Shown here one piece after another: positions 5,728 to 63,950 of a DNA stretch of 64,000 bases. Both the position numbers and the translations under genes were made by a program. Position 1 is the stretch's first letter. Every line of letters starts with the position of its first letter. The notes below the pieces were generated by a model, which saw only the letters and a list, made by a program, of their open reading frames with translations, searched no databases and had not been told where the DNA came from. This DNA comes from Parcubacteria group bacterium (GTDB taxonomy: Bacteria; Patescibacteriota; Patescibacteriia; Patescibacteriales; GWC2-42-12): NCBI GenBank assembly GCA_016188785.1, contig JACPHD010000020.1:3306-67305 (forward strand), written 5' to 3'.

Positions 5728-5903
5728 GTCATTGCGAGGACCTTAATTTTAAATTGTCATTGCGGGCTCCCGCCCGCCTCGCAAGCGAAGCGTTGCGGGC
5801 GCGGTGACCCGCAATCCAGGACGATGGGAATATTGACCAACATGGTTTTTCTGGATTCCTGCTTTCGCAGGAATGACGAAAGTAATTTACTCTTCGCAAT
5901 GAC
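5728..5903. repeat. cluster of GTCATTGCG/GGAATGAC TIR-type palindromic repeats with a nested GC-rich CGCAAGC palindrome
   Basis: GTCATTGCGAG (5728), GTCATTGCGGG...CCCGCCCGCCTCGCAAGCGAAGCGTTGCGGGC...CCCGCAATCCAGG, CTGGATTCCTGCTTTCGCAGGAATGAC, and CTTCGCAATGAC (ends 5903). The same words recur at 12 or more other loci. Confidence 0.85.
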
Positions 5904-19406: not shown

Positions 19407-19690
19407 GTCATTGCGAGGAGCCCGCATCTGCGGGAGATGAAGCAATATTTTTATTTGTCATTCCGGCCTCCGAGCCGGAATCCAGGATTCAGTGGCACAG
19501 ACATCTTATTTTATTATAACCTTAGCAAACCGAACTGCCTACGGACTTATCATGGATTCCCGCTTTCGCGGGAATGACAAAAAGAAAGTAGTCGCTCGCC
19601 ATGACAATTACCTTTTGTCATTCCCGAAGCCGCAGGCTGTCGGGAATCCATGGGTGGGCGGTAGGGATGTTTTTATTGCGAGGACGCGAG
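19407..19690. repeat. cluster of GTCATTGCG/GTCATTCC...GGAATGAC TIR-type repeats
   Basis: Contains GTCATTGCGAGGAGCCCGCATCTGCGGGA. It also holds a full unit, GTCATTCCGGCCTCCGAGCCGGAATCCAGG...ACCGAACTGCCTACGG...GGATTCCCGCTTTCGCGGGAATGAC, followed by GTCATTCCCGAAGCCGCAGGCTGTCGGGAATCCA. Confidence 0.85.
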
Positions 19691-19737: not shown

Positions 19738-20082
19738 ATGAAAAAGTCACTGCAAAGAATTGAAAACTTTTATTTGAGTCAAGGTTGTAAAGGATATGAA
19801 TTACGCAAAGTTTTATTGAAAGATAAAGATTATCAAAAACTTCTTAAAGAAAGAAGACAAAAATTGACTAAAAAAATTTCGTTGACAAAAACAGAAGAAA
19901 AGAAATATGCAATGTCAATAGATAAAGATTACGAGATTTTATTCAAAGTCAAACAGCTTGAAAAATTAAAGCTAAACAAAGAGGAAAAATTTTTGATTAA
20001 ATTTATACGAACCCAACTAGAACATGATTGGAGAAAATGGCTGATAGAACAACTTGACAAAATTTTACTAAAATATCAATAA
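19738..20082 (+). CDS. hypothetical Lys-rich protein (orphan flanked by repeat clusters)
   Basis: 114-aa ORF, AT-rich, with no recognisable motif. It sits between two repeat clusters inside the heat-shock locus. Confidence 0.45.
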   Translation: MKKSLQRIENFYLSQGCKGYELRKVLLKDKDYQKLLKERRQKLTKKISLTKTEEKKYAMSIDKDYEILFKVKQLEKLKLNKEEKFLIKFIRTQLEHDWRKWLIEQLDKILLKYQ

Positions 20083-37338: not shown

Positions 37339-37704
37339 ATGTTCTCAAATAGTTTCATTTTTTACAGCCTGCAAATTTTTATTGAACTAATTGGCGATGT
37401 TTTATATTTCCCCGTCTGGTGGTATTCGCGCGGGCTGTTAAATTTAATTATTGGCCTTAAAAATTTTTTGCTTGATAAGGAAAAAGCTTTGGCGCTGTTG
37501 GTCTGGATAAAAAATATTTTTAAGCCCATGTACGCCCAATATGATTGGCAGGGGATGTTAATCAGTTTTTTTATGCGGCTGGCGCAGATTATTTTCAGAG
37601 GCCTGATTATGCTGTTCTGGCTGGCTTTTTCTTTGGCCGTGATAATCGGCTGGATTTTGCTTCCGCTACTGGCGGTTTATGAAATAATTTTGCAATTAAT
37701 TTAG
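37339..37704 (+). CDS. hypothetical membrane protein
   Basis: 121 aa with 3 predicted TM segments. No motif was recognised. Confidence 0.5.
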   Translation: MFSNSFIFYSLQIFIELIGDVLYFPVWWYSRGLLNLIIGLKNFLLDKEKALALLVWIKNIFKPMYAQYDWQGMLISFFMRLAQIIFRGLIMLFWLAFSLAVIIGWILLPLLAVYEIILQLI

Positions 37705-40647: not shown

Positions 40648-40650
40648 CTT

Positions 40651-40849
40651 GTCATTCCCGCGCAGGCGGGAATCCAGGAGGGAGTGGTAGGAAGATTATT
40701 ATATATATGAAGATGGCCAGTATATAGAAATTGAACGCTATATAATATAAGATAATCCGGCTTGGCGTGATTTGTTTGTTAATATGCTATAAATAACAGT
40801 TGTACGTTTAATCCCTGGATTCCCGATAGCCTGCGGCTTCGGGAATGAC
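40651..40849. mobile_element. MITE-like element with hairpin-containing TIRs (GTCATTCCCGCGCAGGCGGGAATCCAGG / CCTGGATTCCCG..CGGGAATGAC)
   Basis: 199 nt. The left and right ends are reverse complements, and each end folds on itself. The interior is AT-rich and non-coding. Confidence 0.75.
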
Positions 40850-45763: not shown

Positions 45764-45788
45764 TTAATCAATCGCTAAATGCGGTTTC

Positions 45789-45850
45789 GCGCTGTTACCG
45801 CGCCCGCTAACGCCTAAGCGTAGCGATGGCGGGCGGGGCTCAGTTGGCAG
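45789..45850 (+). pseudogene. tRNA-Lys 5' fragment (22 tRNA nt, 26-nt repeat with the 5' TTTC flank) interrupted by a 40-nt GC-rich palindrome
   Basis: GCGCTGTTA (45789-45797) plus GCTCAGTTGGCAG (45838-45850) equals the first 22 nt of the tRNA at 46106, and the preceding TTTC is also shared. The insert at 45798-45837 is CCGCGCCCGCTAACGCCTAAGCGTAGCGATGGCGGGCGGG. Confidence 0.8.
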
Positions 45851-45859
45851 GCAAAGTAT

Positions 45860-46096
45860 ATGTATTATACTTATGTACTAATCAGTATAAAAGATAAAAA
45901 ATTATATATTGGGTTTACTAATGATTTAAGCAAAAGGTTTCTTGAACATCAGAATGGCCAAGTAAATTCCACAAGAGATAGAAGACCATTAAAATTAGTA
46001 TATTATGAGGCTTGCCATGATAAATATAAAGCCTTAGGCAGGGAAAAATATTTTAAAACAGGTTTTGGCAGAAAGTTTTTAGAAAATAGAATATAA
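45860..46096 (+). CDS. small GIY-YIG nuclease-domain protein
   Basis: 78 aa. YYTYVLIS...KLYIGFTNDLSKRFLEHQNG...RPLKLVYYE is the GIY-YIG (URI) signature. Confidence 0.85.
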   Translation: MYYTYVLISIKDKKLYIGFTNDLSKRFLEHQNGQVNSTRDRRPLKLVYYEACHDKYKALGREKYFKTGFGRKFLENRI

Positions 46097-46105
46097 TATA
46101 ATTTC

Positions 46106-46181
46106 GCGCTGTTAGCTCAGTTGGCAGAGCAGCTCCCTTTTAAGGAGAAGGTCACTGGTTCGAATCCAGTACAGCGCACCA
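46106..46181 (+). tRNA. tRNA-Lys (anticodon UUU), CCA encoded
   Basis: The cloverleaf was read manually. Acceptor GCGCTGT/ACAGCGC, D arm GCTCAGTTGGCAGAGC, anticodon loop CTTTTAA, T arm ACTGGTTCGAATCCAGT, and terminal ACCA. Confidence 0.9.
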
Positions 46182-47351: not shown

Positions 47352-47567
47352 GCCACCCTAGCTCAGTTGGTAGAGCAACGGTTTTGCCCGCCCGCCTCGC
47401 AAGCGAAGCGTTGCGGGCAGGCCCGCCCGCCTTGACATGCCGAAGTAGCTCAATGGTAGAGCAACGGTTTTGTAAACCGTAGGTTACCGGTTCAAATCCG
47501 GTCTTCGGCTCAAGGCATGTCGGGCGCGGTAAACCGTAGGTCGTCGGTCCGAATCCGACGGGTGGCT
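47352..47567 (+). tRNA. tRNA-Thr(UGU) outer gene, interrupted in the anticodon loop by a 143-bp insert (halves 47352-47386 and 47530-47567)
   Basis: The joined halves give acceptor GCCACCC/GGGTGGC and D arm GCTCAGTTGGTAGAGC. The anticodon arm is ACGGT-TTTG|TAA-ACCGT. The T arm GTCGG-TCCGAAT-CCGAC has an unusual C at position 55. Confidence 0.7.
47439..47510 (+). tRNA. tRNA-Thr (anticodon UGU), intact, nested inside the outer tRNA-Thr gene
   Basis: Acceptor GCCGAAG/CTTCGGC, D arm GCTCAATGGTAGAGC, anticodon arm ACGGT-TTTGTAA-ACCGT, and T arm ACCGG-TTCAAAT-CCGGT. No CCA is encoded. Confidence 0.9.
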
Positions 47568-47577
47568 CTTTTTTAAT

Positions 47578-48948
47578 ATGATGAAGACTTACAAAATTTA
47601 TACTTTAGGCTGTAAGGTCAATCAATATGATTCAGGCAAGCTGTCCGCCCAGCTTCAGGCAGCCGGATTAGTTATGGCGGGTAAGCAAGCTGATCTGGCC
47701 ATAATCAACAGCTGTGCCGTGACTAAAACCGCCATGATAAAAAGCGGACGGATGATTAGATCTGCTAAAAAGGAAAATCCAGGGGCGAAAATTGCGTTAA
47801 TTGGTTGCTGGGTTAGAGCTTCTGAAACTAAACTTGCGGGGGTAGATTTTGTAATCGGAGGCAAAGAAATTATTAAACAGATAAATAGAATTATGAATTA
47901 TGAATCAGGAATTAGGAATAAAATTCAAAATCCAAATAATAAAAATAATAAAATAATTATAAATAGTGATAAATCTCGTTATTTTATAAAAATTCAGGAT
48001 GGCTGTGAGCAGTTTTGCAGTTATTGCATTATTCCGTACGCCCGTGGCGGACTAAAAAGCCGGGGAGAGGCGGAAGTTATTGGCGAGGTTGAGCAGGCGG
48101 TAAAAGCCGGCTATGGCGAAATTGTTTTGTCCGGTATTCATTTGGGGCTATACGGAAAAGAAAGTCAACTGCTATATTCTGTCATTCCGGCCTCCGAGCC
48201 GCCCCGCAAAATGCGGGGTGGATTGCGGATCACCCGCCCGTACCGAACGGGTACGTTCGGGCGGGAGCCCGCAATGACAAATTATTATAATGGCGCTCGT
48301 GATGAAAACTTGGCCAGCCTTTTAAAAAAATTAGTTAAACTTAAAAATTTAGGCCGGATCAGGTTGAGTTCTATTGAAATTACCGAAGTAAGCGATGAAT
48401 TGATTGAACTAATAAAAAACAGCGGCAAAATCTGCCGCCAGCTGCATCTGCCGCTCCAGTCCGGTTCGGATAAAATTTTAAAACTAATGAACCGGCCTTA
48501 TGATATGAATTATTTTAAAAATAAAATTAAACAAATCAGGCGAGTTCTGCCGGATATGGCTATTACTACCGATGTCATCGTCGGTTTTCCCGGAGAAAGC
48601 GAAAAAGATTTTCGCGCTACGGAAAAATTTATCAGACAAATAAAATTCAGCCGTTTGCATGTTTTTCCCTTTTCCGCTCAGGAAAAAACGTCGGCCGCGA
48701 AAATGTCCGGACAAGTTAAGGAAAAAATAAAAAAGCGCCGCGCTGATTTATTGAGAAAGTTAAATTTGAAGTTGATGGCAGATTATAAAAATAAATTTAA
48801 AGGCCGAGACCTGAAAATCGCGGTCGAGCAGATCAAACAAAATAAAGTTATGGGCAAAACCGAGTATTATTTTGATGTTTCAGCCGATAAGAAAAGTTTG
48901 AAAAATAAAAATATTAGAGTAGGGCAGATTATCAAGATAAAAATTTGA
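47578..48948 (+). CDS. mtaB: MtaB-like radical SAM methylthiotransferase with two in-frame repeat insertions
   Basis: 456 aa. TLGCKVNQYDS N-terminus, radical SAM motif CEQFCSYCIIPYARG, and a TRAM-like C-terminus. Insertions at 47888-47945 and 48181-48279. Confidence 0.85.
   Translation: MMKTYKIYTLGCKVNQYDSGKLSAQLQAAGLVMAGKQADLAIINSCAVTKTAMIKSGRMIRSAKKENPGAKIALIGCWVRASETKLAGVDFVIGGKEIIKQINRIMNYESGIRNKIQNPNNKNNKIIINSDKSRYFIKIQDGCEQFCSYCIIPYARGGLKSRGEAEVIGEVEQAVKAGYGEIVLSGIHLGLYGKESQLLYSVIPASEPPRKMRGGLRITRPYRTGTFGREPAMTNYYNGARDENLASLLKKLVKLKNLGRIRLSSIEITEVSDELIELIKNSGKICRQLHLPLQSGSDKILKLMNRPYDMNYFKNKIKQIRRVLPDMAITTDVIVGFPGESEKDFRATEKFIRQIKFSRLHVFPFSAQEKTSAAKMSGQVKEKIKKRRADLLRKLNLKLMADYKNKFKGRDLKIAVEQIKQNKVMGKTEYYFDVSADKKSLKNKNIRVGQIIKIKI
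47888..47945. repeat. heptamer tiling (GAATTAT, GAATCAG, GAATTAG...) inside mtaB
   Basis: GAATTATGAATTATGAATCAGGAATTAGGAATAAAATTCAAAATCCAAATAAT, translated as IMNYESGIRNKIQNPNN. Confidence 0.8.
48181..48279. mobile_element. GTCATTCC...CGCAATGAC TIR element (99 nt = 33 codons) in-frame inside mtaB
   Basis: GTCATTCCGGCCTCCGAGCC...CCCCGCAAAATGCGGGG...CGGGAGCCCGCAATGACA. The GC-rich block translates as VIPASEPPRKMRGGLRITRPYRTGTFGREPAMT. Confidence 0.8.
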
Positions 48949-61357: not shown

Positions 61358-61589
61358 TTGAATTTATTATTGTCATTGCGGTAGTTGCCTCCGGATTGTC
61401 ATTGCGGCCTCCGAGCCGCAATCCAGGTTTCAACGCCACGAATATTCTATTTAACAATCAACTCAACCAACCGAACTGCCTACGGGTTTAACCTGCCGCG
61501 CCCGCCATGCGAGCCGCAAGGCGAGGCGGGCGGGGATTCCCCCCGCCCCGCATTTGCGGGGCGGGGCGGGAATGACAAGAAAGAAAAGC
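61358..61589. repeat. 232-bp composite of GTCATTGCGG/GGAATGAC and GC-rich palindromic repeats bounded by a 20-bp direct repeat
   Basis: GGCTATGTTTATGTTGTAAG occurs at 61338-61357 and at 61590-61609. The interior shares GTCATTGCGGCCTCCGAGCCGCAATCCAGG and ACCGAACTGCCTACGG with the unit at 19447-19578. Confidence 0.8.
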
Positions 61590-63494: not shown

Positions 63495-63950
63495 ATGACA
63501 TTATTTATCAATACAACCTATAATGACCAGGTTCTGATTATGTTAAAACATGGCGATGGTTCAGTCTTGGCCAGTAAAAAATTCAAAGCGCGTTTTCGGC
63601 AGAGTGAAAAGCTTTTGCCGGCCATAGATAAACTGCTTAAAGACAATCAATTAAAATTAAGTGATTTGAGCGGCCTGGAAGTGGAAAACCGCGGCGGTTC
63701 GTTCACCCCGTTAGAAAAACCTTTTCTAACGGGGTTCACAGCTTTGCGTATCGGCGTGGTTACGGCCAACGCCCTGGCCTACGCGCTGGCAATTCCGCTT
63801 ATGGCGGCCGGAAGCAAAAAGTTAAAAATTAAAAGCCAAAAATTTTCCGTAGTTGAGCCTTTATATGACCGAGAGCCGGAGATAACAGTTAAAAAGATTT
63901 CTATTTCTGTCATTGCGGCCTCCGAGCCGCAATCCAGGAGTAAACCGTAA
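63495..63950 (+). CDS. tsaB: tRNA t6A37 biosynthesis protein TsaB (YeaZ-like), short, with a hairpin insertion in its conserved motif and a repeat-derived C-terminal tail
   Basis: 151 aa. GGSFT[PLEKPFLTGFT]ALRIGVVTANALAYAL compares with the canonical G(P)GSFTGxRIG(x)A motif. The last ~14 residues (VIAASEPQSRSKP) are read from a GTCATTGCGG repeat. Confidence 0.7.
   Translation: MTLFINTTYNDQVLIMLKHGDGSVLASKKFKARFRQSEKLLPAIDKLLKDNQLKLSDLSGLEVENRGGSFTPLEKPFLTGFTALRIGVVTANALAYALAIPLMAAGSKKLKIKSQKFSVVEPLYDREPEITVKKISISVIAASEPQSRSKP
63706..63734. repeat. CCCCGTTAGA...TCTAACGGGG hairpin element, copy 4 (inside tsaB)
   Basis: CCCCGTTAGAAAAACCTTTTCTAACGGGG, flanked by the direct repeat GTTCAC (63701-63706 and 63734-63739). 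Confidence 0.85.
63909..63938. repeat. left-end unit of the GTCATTGCGG...CGCAATCCAGG repeat at the tsaB 3' end
   Basis: GTCATTGCGGCCTCCGAGCCGCAATCCAGG is identical to 61395-61424. Confidence 0.85.

Follow-up and report, generated by a model that had tools for sequence, protein, structure and literature searches.

The 64,000-nt stretch of Parcubacteria DNA considered here (contig JACPHD010000020.1, positions 3,306 to 67,305; hereafter, the window) carries an intact mtaB gene (47578–48948, forward strand), whose 456-residue product, a radical-SAM methylthiotransferase (SAM, S-adenosylmethionine; ms2t6A37 in tRNA), hosts an in-frame insertion. We consider the inserted DNA to be a selfish dimer of CGTC-tagged repetitive extragenic palindromes (REPs) lodged in the remains of an older dimer, and carried as a tolerated, translated loop of MtaB, a reading to which we would give a probability of about 80%. 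Judged by its sequence, the inner element consists of two CGTC/TGTC-tagged REP units arranged head to head and is no new kind of miniature inverted-repeat transposable element (MITE); the phenomenon is already known, what is new being the lineage and the gene that host it, and no new kind of system is revealed. The original prediction, made from the letters of the window alone, had assigned the element to a MITE-like family: that it is repeat-derived and foreign holds good, whereas its standing as an undescribed MITE does not, the units being CGTC REP dimers of a published type (PMC3733652), for which neither a target-site duplication nor a cognate transposase was seen.

The segment first singled out lies at 48181–48279 on the forward strand, just after the GIHLGLYGK strand of the enzyme, and reads GTCATTCCGGCCTCCGAGCC...CCCGCAATGACA. 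As had been proposed, its 99 nt constitute 33 in-frame codons without a stop within the mtaB open reading frame (ORF), corresponding to residues 202–234 (VIPASEPPRKMRGGLRITRPYRTGTFGREPAMT); the peptides ESQLLYSVIPASEPPR and EPAMTNYYNGAR are examples of what the insert encodes. Its GC content is, as claimed, far higher than that of its surroundings (0.68 versus 0.41 for the window), although high GC alone is not diagnostic, since ~60 GC-rich 50-nt islands lie within other genes of the window. The abundance of hairpins is likewise real: the RNA fold of the element has an energy of -59.7 kcal/mol (z = -5.4), which was equalled by none of 200 shuffled sequences, and a somewhat wider segment folded as DNA gives z = -4.7. 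The proposed kinship of its termini with an intergenic family is evident from the 20-nt terminal word, which occurs four times in the window where none would be expected, and from the 10-nt terminus, which occurs 42 times against an expectation of 10; moreover, 22 of 28 exact termini fall within the 11% of the window that lies outside ORFs of at least 90 amino acids. The mtaB copy is the sole complete element within a solid gene of the window: a scan of the window for the peptide motif gave no further convincing in-frame copy, and a scan for GC islands is, given their number within genes, too unspecific to find further intragenic ones. A terminator and promoter scan placed no T-run after the element, which is thus unlike an intrinsic terminator. 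Six insert peptides found no match in NCBIfam or Pfam at E values up to 10; a profile search with an alignment of insert peptides (A2) against a set of 5.8 billion proteins scored a single candidate, the query being too short; and literature searches returned primer sequences only for the motif GTCATTGCGAG and nothing relevant for Candidate Phyla Radiation (CPR) combined with MITE.

The nature of the family becomes apparent from its other members. When the window was searched for hairpins preceded by GTC, 18 units emerged, as against 3.7 in shuffled sequences, built on a common plan: a (C/T)GTC tag, a stem of 8–9 bp starting AT, a loop of 4–6 nt and a CCA(G) tail. Examples are CGTC-ATTCCTGC-GAAA-GCAGGAAT-CCAG, TGTC-ATTCCCGC-GCAG-GCGGGAAT-CCAG and TGTC-ATTCCGGCC-TCCG-AGCCGGAAT-CCAG. 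All 16 convincing units begin with TGTC or CGTC; the stems include ATTCCGGC(C), ATTCCCGC, ATTCCTGC and ATTGCGGG; the loop has 4 nt in many units (GAAA, GCAG, TCAA) and 10, 20 or 38 nt in other variants; and the tail reads ...GGAAT-CCAG or CCAT. The CNCCGA unit may be drawn either with a 6-nt loop or with a 9-bp stem containing one mismatch and a 4-nt loop. According to the published definition (Di Nocera, De Gregorio and Rocco, 2013; PMC3733652), a CGTC REP has a CGTC tag (often TGTC, with CCTC allowed), an 8–9 bp stem starting A,T, a loop of 4–5 nt, to which exceptions are noted, and a 3-nt CCA tail; head-to-head dimers predominate, their spacers of 20–100 bp are sometimes structured, and the copies are mostly intergenic and without a dedicated transposase. 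Since the tag, stem, tail and dimers of the window units fit this definition, we assign them to the CGTC-tagged REPs.

Dimers with their tags facing outwards are seen at 40650–40849, 19456–19579, 61398–61576 and 5756–5877, as well as in the inner element of mtaB, and an outer-plus-inner nested design is frequent between genes, in the clusters that start at 5728, 19407 and 61372. The first of these (5728–5903) has outer GCGAG-type arms around an inner dimer that includes a large-loop unit (5756–5815); the second (19407–19647), in which the nested design spans 19407–19605, includes the complete unit TGTCATTCCGGCCTCCGAGCCGGAATCCAG (19456–19485); and the third (61372–61576), of the same family as the mtaB element, again has both an outer and an inner part. 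The head-to-head dimer at 40650–40849 has TGTCATTCCCGCGCAGGCGGGAATCCAG as its left unit (40650–40677). No transposase was found adjoining the repeat clusters among the ORFs checked within the window, and no insertion sequence (IS) with ends matching the repeats.

The insertion in mtaB was mapped by codon-level reading of the orthologous DNA at six loci (L001, L003, L005, L127, L128 and L129). Measured against insert-free orthologs, the real insertion is ~48171–48306 on the forward strand, a decayed dimer on the outside and a second one within, which together account for ~45 extra residues (about 198–243), and the 99-nt segment is the inner module of this nested pair; the limits 48181–48279 therefore delimit a real module and are too narrow for the insertion as a whole. 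Of the outer, GCGAG-type dimer, the left arm survives as a remnant (48171–48180, forward strand) with a 15-nt deletion relative to L001, L003 and L128 (GTCATTGCGAGCGACTGCCTTATCT reduced to GCTATATTCT), and the right arm (48280–48306, forward strand) has decayed by point changes, reading AATTATTATAATGGCGCTCGTGATGAA in the window versus AATTATTATAGCGCTCCTCGCAATGAC in the orthologs. The left inner REP unit (48180–48201, forward strand) has its TGTC tag at 48180–48183, the stem ATTCCGGC(C), the loop TCCG/CTCCGA and, being truncated at its 3' end, only GCCG of the return stem; a 21-nt stretch of it recurs unchanged in the complete units at 19457, 61398 and 63909, where GSAATCCAGG follows. In place of the 32-nt tail and spacer of the orthologs there follows a 17-nt GC mini-hairpin, CCCCGCAAAATGCGGGG (~48202–48218, forward strand). 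Related CCCGCANNTGCGGG mini-hairpins number five in the window, against 0.15 expected (19421, 20122, 37814, 44091 and 61547); they are confined to loops and spacers that belong to larger repeat units, giving the impression of hairpins inserted into hairpins.

The right inner REP unit (48219–48279) lies on the reverse strand, such that on the forward strand its tag appears as GACA at 48276–48279 and its CCA tail as TGG at 48219–48221; between them are the stem ATTGCGGG, a large structured loop and the stem TCCGCAAT. Detected with an 8-bp stem containing one mismatch, it corresponds to TGGATTGCGGATCAAGCCCGCAATGACA, the unit of L128, with an insertion added in the loop, and it agrees with the intergenic unit at 5756–5815 over its first 24 nt and its last ~20 nt. 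The inserted part is a 33-nt palindrome, CCCGCCCGTACCGAACGGGTACGTTCGGGCGGG (48233–48265, forward strand; 11 codons), that sits exactly in the loop: the window reads ...GGATCA, the 33 nt and then AGCCCGCAATGAC (AGCCCGC), versus ...GGATCAAGCCCGCAATGAC (...GGATCAAGCCCGC) in L128. The mtaB and intergenic copies have ends resembling terminal inverted repeats (TIRs) and their flanks read T/GTC...GAC/A, with the slashes at the junctions; no target-site duplication was seen at any of these copies.

The orthologs present a series of states of this loop. In L129 (P0021), it is short and empty (GKNSEVNL), and in L127 (P0010), it holds one complete GCGAG-type dimer only (TGTCATTGCGAGGAGCG...CGCTCGCAATGACA). 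In L001, L003 and L128, the arms of the outer dimer enclose AT-rich bits and an inner dimer (TGTCATTCCGGCCNCCGAGCCGGAATCCAG, spacer, CTGGATTGCGGGTCAAGCCCGCAATGAC), at a position identical to that in the window. The closest ortholog (L005; 71% amino acid identity) is missing the element and retains a vestige of the outer right arm (GCCGCTCGAGATGGC), which shows that the element was lost by deletion. Orthologs sharing the nested architecture of the window are at 60–70% identity, and distant and some close orthologs have no insert; judged by this comparison, the insertion is neither private nor recent. Additionally, both the arms (GTTCAGCGCGAxxAACAAGTTTCTGG) and the inner spacer (AATTATTAT) lie outside the repeat units, yet are homologous in L001, L003, L128 and the window, which argues that the nested composite was inherited. 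The original prediction had allowed that the segment would be a domain should distant MtaB orthologs share it; instead, the absence of the insert from distant and some close orthologs, and a DNA sequence that is plainly repeat, speak against a domain. Among 110 orthologs, the loop, taken from GIHLGLY to LGRIRLSS, has a base length of 20–21 residues and reaches 74, and in 22 of the 40 closest orthologs, it contains REP-derived peptides of at least three kinds (LSLRGA..ATKQS..SVARND, LSLRAT..SEAIS..APRND and SVMPDLIRHPE..LDSRLRGND, with, in nested inserts, VIPAxEPESR..PAMT or SFPRRRESR..PAMT). On a neighbour-joining tree of MtaB, the insert types (A, A+inner and B) are intermingled with one another and with the empty alleles, from which we deduce repeated gain, replacement and loss at the loop. 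The empty loop of L129 (GAAGTCAATTTA) reads ...GTC AAT TTA, as compared with ...GAC AAY YTA after the terminal GAC of the element in filled loops; the likeness of this empty site to a tag and stem start (GTCAT) is perhaps fortuitous, or else may hint at how targets are chosen.

The host is a bona fide MtaB. Its product scores 376.3 bits against NCBIfam TIGR01579 (curated cutoff 357.05), with the match split in two at the insert, and Pfam recognizes UPF0004 and Radical_SAM. Both the three N-terminal cysteines and the CxxxCxxC radical-SAM motif are present; the Fe-S cluster cysteines (C12, C46, C77, C143, C147 and C150) and the radical-SAM motifs are invariant across the ortholog alignment (A1). 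Identities at codon positions 1, 2 and 3 of the mtaB flanks between orthologs (~0.80, 0.87 and 0.55, respectively) indicate that the gene is under purifying selection. An AlphaFold2 model of the window protein calculated with alignment A1 has a mean predicted local distance difference test score (pLDDT) of 74.8 and a predicted template modelling score of 0.70; it matches the folds of MtaB (9a6d_A; TM-score 0.77) and MiaB (0.75). The C-terminal two-thirds are mostly confident, with block means of ~82–96 beyond the insert and dips to 68–77 near 361–380. By contrast, residues 199–241 have pLDDT values below 50 and no secondary structure, being flanked by a strand (181–185) and a helix (245–253), and the sequence alignment with MiaB (7MJV) breaks at the same place (query 7–193 and 250–437 versus chain 22–221 and 237–428). 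The loop follows the SAM-binding strand (..EIVLSGIHLGLYGK), on the C-terminal face of the radical-SAM barrel.

A second unusual region of the protein is the linker between the UPF0004 and radical-SAM domains, encoded by low-complexity sequence with tandem repeats (47888–47974, forward strand; pLDDT below 50 for residues 108–131). Here, a heptamer-tiled insertion had been claimed at 47888–47945. The tiling is genuine, as Tandem Repeats Finder reports GAATTAG × 4.6 at 47888–47919 and AAT-rich repeats at 47934–47974; it does not amount to a net insertion, because the linker, albeit hypervariable in alignment A1, is present in all orthologs, as is the NYE(S/L)xI motif encoded there. In L128, the linker (~660–700; A1 columns 130–195) contains a single in-frame REP unit, GAGATTGCTTCGCCCGCCATCGCGGGGCTCGCAATGACA, encoding the peptide EIASPAIAGLAMT, which makes the linker a second permissive site of MtaB.

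The alleles of the loop have in common that they preserve the reading frame. Relative to the orthologs, the window differs by -15 nt, by 32 nt replaced with 17 (that is, -15) and by +33 nt. In L128, the left inner unit is of another type, is 2 nt shorter and is read in another frame (SFPRRRES versus VIPAAEPES); the upstream arm is 2 nt longer and compensates, such that the segment remains 177 nt long and the downstream frame is restored. All length differences between alleles are multiples of 3 or compensated, and no allele contains a stop, a pattern that fits selection on a translated sequence and would be unexpected for an excised RNA. We propose that the older dimer entered the loop in the ancestry of a clade of Falkowbacteria-like Parcubacteria and that a second dimer subsequently landed between its arms; the composite would then have been handed down and reshaped, as units were swapped and insertions of hairpins and deletions took place, and would have disappeared from some lineages. 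It could persist by being in frame and free of stops in a disordered, length-variable surface loop, where presumably only frame-preserving variants survive purifying selection on mtaB. The ~45 extra residues would thus be transcribed and translated, probably remaining unstructured and having little or no function of their own. Of the three outcomes contemplated by the original prediction, namely a tolerated foreign loop, post-transcriptional removal and a decaying gene, it is the first that draws support from the frame-preserving alleles, the purifying selection and the modelled disorder: the insert is most likely translated as a disordered surface loop, and is probably neutral for the host.

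Several points weigh against this account. The account presupposes translation through a hairpin of some -60 kcal/mol. The left inner unit is incomplete at its 3' end, and the loops of 6 nt and, in the right unit, 38 nt exceed the published 4–5 nt; the mtaB copy is therefore atypical and probably immobile. The position of the loop after the SAM-binding strand, on the C-terminal face of the barrel, bears on its neutrality for catalysis or tRNA binding. The exact allele of the window is on record from a single contig of a metagenome-assembled genome (MAG). Finally, the insertion block is 78–88% identical between alleles, as compared with ~55% at synonymous sites, and shows no codon periodicity, which simple neutral inheritance does not predict. 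Together with the sharing of the right unit with 5756–5815, this excess of identity suggests homogenization by copying or gene conversion between genomic copies.

The same excess could also be taken to mean that the loop is a hot spot into which the same types of element have inserted independently and recently in each lineage, the architecture not being inherited. This is the alternative that survives best, although we still regard it as unlikely. In its favour, the insert types are interleaved with empty alleles on the MtaB tree, the elements are more similar than their host genes, different dimer types share the right junction ...AATGAC/AAY and nested clusters are common between genes too. 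However, independent insertion would not supply the homologous AT-rich arms and inner spacer, which are not repeats and therefore point to common descent of the nested composite in L001, L003, L128 and the window, nor the vestige in L005, which marks a loss by deletion. A further proposal, to which we would attach a similarly low likelihood, is that the MtaB loop records ongoing CGTC-REP activity in CPR bacteria, the hairpins still being copied or converted by a widely conserved machinery that targets existing ones; it is prompted by conservation above that of synonymous sites, the unit swaps, the shared large-loop variant and the presence of dimers within dimers. Were it correct, the loop would offer a tractable handle on the movement of CGTC REPs, for which no transposase is known, and the hairpin might act as a cis site for a single-stranded DNA (ssDNA) nuclease or for recombination inside a coding region.

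It is less probable again that the insert has been exapted, either as a protein loop or as a DNA or RNA hairpin, with a role in binding tRNA or a partner, in mRNA stability, in translational pausing or as the target of a hairpin-specific ssDNA nuclease. The nested insert has been kept across lineages at ~60–70% protein identity and is more conserved than synonymous sites, and the loop is at the substrate face of the barrel; moreover, SsnA binds and cuts the related NTS hairpins of Neisseria, which modulate recombination (PMC11893778). The lack of codon periodicity and the change of peptide frame between alleles nevertheless imply that this conservation does not reflect selection at the protein level. 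Furthermore, many close orthologs have deleted the insert, disorder is predicted for it, and gene conversion from other copies would explain the conservation of the palindromes equally well, the right unit matching the genome-specific variant at 5756–5815.

That mtaB is a pseudogene undergoing decay, of which the repeat insertion would be a symptom, seems highly improbable. The gene does have two odd regions, the low-complexity linker and the insertion, and MtaB is dispensable in many bacteria. Against this, the 456-codon ORF is intact and its product exceeds the curated cutoff of TIGR01579, the cluster cysteines and radical-SAM motifs are invariant, the codon-position identities are those of a gene under purifying selection, the modelled core is confident and MtaB-like, and intact insert-bearing alleles occur in several independently assembled lineages. 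Post-transcriptional removal, whether intron-like or through RNase processing and religation to yield a protein without the 33 residues, is, if anything, less credible still. The fold is very stable with paired termini, and CPR genomes are known for insertions in their rRNA genes. On the other hand, at gathering thresholds Rfam identified two tRNAs only in the whole window, and no RNA family, intron or ribozyme for the element; a length of 99–136 nt is far under the size of group I or II introns; the alleles are frame-preserving and stop-free, a constraint that excision would not impose; the same units are in frame in unrelated genes of other phyla; and Rickettsia proteins decorated with the palindromic element RPE-1 are reported to be expressed in vivo (PMC3733652). 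An assembly artefact, in which repeats induced a chimaera in the MAG contig, is the least likely reading of all: the exact protein comes from one contig only and short repeats can mis-join metagenome assemblies, yet a single mtaB reading frame continues through both flanks and independent assemblies (ENA, JGI, NCBI and Logan) show this nested design at the very same codon.

The family extends well beyond this genome. The 21-mer GTCATTSCGGCCNCCGAGCCG of the left inner unit occurs at no fewer than 120 genome loci, identical in more than 10 phyla; by record title, these include CPR groups, Fibrobacter, Dehalococcoidia, Proteobacteria, Bacteroidetes, Firmicutes, Actinobacteria, Nitrospirae and others. 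In nearly all of the loci listed, the return stem compensates and a CCA tail is present, as in the compensatory stem variants ATTCCGGC...GCCGGAAT and ATTGCGGC...GCCGCAAT. The 21-mer is in frame within at least five bona fide genes, encoding an amidase/GatA (L044; Saccharimonadales), an M16 peptidase (L077; Gammaproteobacteria), HsdM (L082; Nitrospirae), valyl-tRNA synthetase (L089) and a DNA topoisomerase (L100), as well as in a long ORF for a membrane protein (L050; Gottesmanbacteria). In-frame 'protein-coding palindromes', classically a Rickettsia curiosity, are hereby extended to the CPR, and several other phyla are seen to carry the same 21-nt hairpin unit in frame within housekeeping genes. 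For annotation, this accounts for a class of unusual GC-rich stretches and of loops modelled with low confidence in CPR proteins, and cautions that they should not be taken for domains, introns or the scars of pseudogenes. Moreover, the allelic series of the MtaB loop (empty, outer only, nested, swapped unit, decayed and deleted) could be used for studies of CGTC REP turnover.

A 78-residue single-domain GIY-YIG ORF (45860–46096, forward strand; PF01541, 59.5 bits) lies 1.5 kb upstream of mtaB. As a cognate nuclease of the Ssn type, it was provisionally rejected: no repeat units flank it, and 80 metagenomic loci of its relatives are likewise unflanked, containing 10 units in 187 kb against 8 in shuffled sequence, which is no enrichment. 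Small ORFs beside the repeat clusters (19738–20079, 37339–37701 and others) were also considered for this role and are not GIY-YIG proteins. The GIY-YIG ORF (considered with 45786–45855 and 46106–46181) is situated just upstream of tRNA-Lys and is preceded by a duplicate of the tRNA 5' end (TTCGCGCTGTTA...GCTCAGTTGGCAG) that is split by a 40-nt GC hairpin, the whole resembling a small mobile GIY-YIG cassette at a tRNA gene. Elsewhere, tRNA-Thr (47439–47511) is followed by a partial tRNA-like fragment, ggtaaaccgtaggtcgtcggtccgaatccgacgggtggctc (47512–47575), which ends in a terminator-like hairpin and T-run (47547–47573) and may be the remnant of a duplicated tRNA 3' half. The GC-rich word GCAAGCGAAGCGTTGCGGGC occurs both upstream of tRNA-Thr (47395–47435) and in the loop of the large-loop unit (5780–5806), and may represent a further small repeat module. 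Lastly, a 151-residue ORF with a weak TsaD/YeaZ-like match (63495–63950) runs into the repeat unit at 63909–63936, and its C-terminus may be repeat-encoded or mis-called.

Several known systems invite comparison. In common with bacterial MITEs (Correia/NEMIS, ERIC, RUP and the Coxiella QMITE; PMC10969869), the elements of the window are small and non-autonomous, have terminal inverted repeats, fold strongly and can make in-frame fusions; they differ in that the window yielded neither a target-site duplication for them nor a parent IS whose ends match, and their 'TIRs' are made up of the tags and stems that belong to a pair of autonomous hairpin units. With GTAG-tagged REPs and REPINs, they share short hairpin units, inverted dimers that can fold into one long hairpin, and a mostly intergenic distribution with few intragenic copies. 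The latter, however, bear the tag GTAG and are mobilized by RAYTs (REP-associated tyrosine transposases; IS200/IS605-like Y1 transposases), whereas the tag in the window is (C/T)GTC and no RAYT was seen there. The Rickettsia palindromic element RPE-1 likewise resembles the mtaB insert in being palindromic selfish DNA located in frame at fold-compatible sites. As described by Ogata et al. (2000) and Claverie and Ogata (2003), cited in PMC10969869 and PMC3733652, RPE-1 is a distinct element of ~106–150 bp with its own conserved peptide, has hit many unrelated essential genes and is expressed within the protein. Neither the six insert peptides nor the whole of MtaB matched an RPE model in NCBIfam or Pfam, a library in which we take such models to be present.

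Closer relationships are found among the CGTC REPs, of which four families (CGTC-1 to -4) have been delineated; CGTC-1 corresponds to the Neisseria dRS3 and to RPE-6 of R. conorii, and CGTC-4 to RPE-4 (PMC3733652). The related NTS of Neisseria (CGTCATTCCCGCGMAVGCGGGAATCYRG) is bound and cut as ssDNA by SsnA, a small GIY-YIG nuclease (PMC11893778, 2025), and the window unit TGTCATTCCCGCGCAGGCGGGAATCCAG at 40650–40677 equals this consensus save for its first base. The search pattern published for Ssn-related motifs (SRMs), HGTCWYN(0-2)YYVSBRHN(0-5)WNVSBRGN(0-2)RNCYNB (PMC11893778), is matched by two intergenic units of the window (19552–19579 and 40650–40677); both mtaB units and most other window units fail the pattern, which is too strict for this genome, and no Ssn gene (a single-domain GIY-YIG nuclease, cd10448) flanked by units is present within the 64 kb. 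The published CGTC REPs were listed from five phyla, none of them within the CPR, and include in-frame copies in housekeeping genes, where dimers encode 20–30 residues and clusters 43–82 (PMC3733652). The units of the window have in common with them the tag, the stem starting AT, the CCA tail, head-to-head dimers, an intergenic bias and in-frame copies. They are set apart by their Parcubacteria host, by a commonest unit with a 6-nt loop (CNCCGA) and a genome-specific variant with a structured loop of 38 nt, by a dimer nested in an older dimer, and by the repeated colonization, across a clade, of one loop of one gene.

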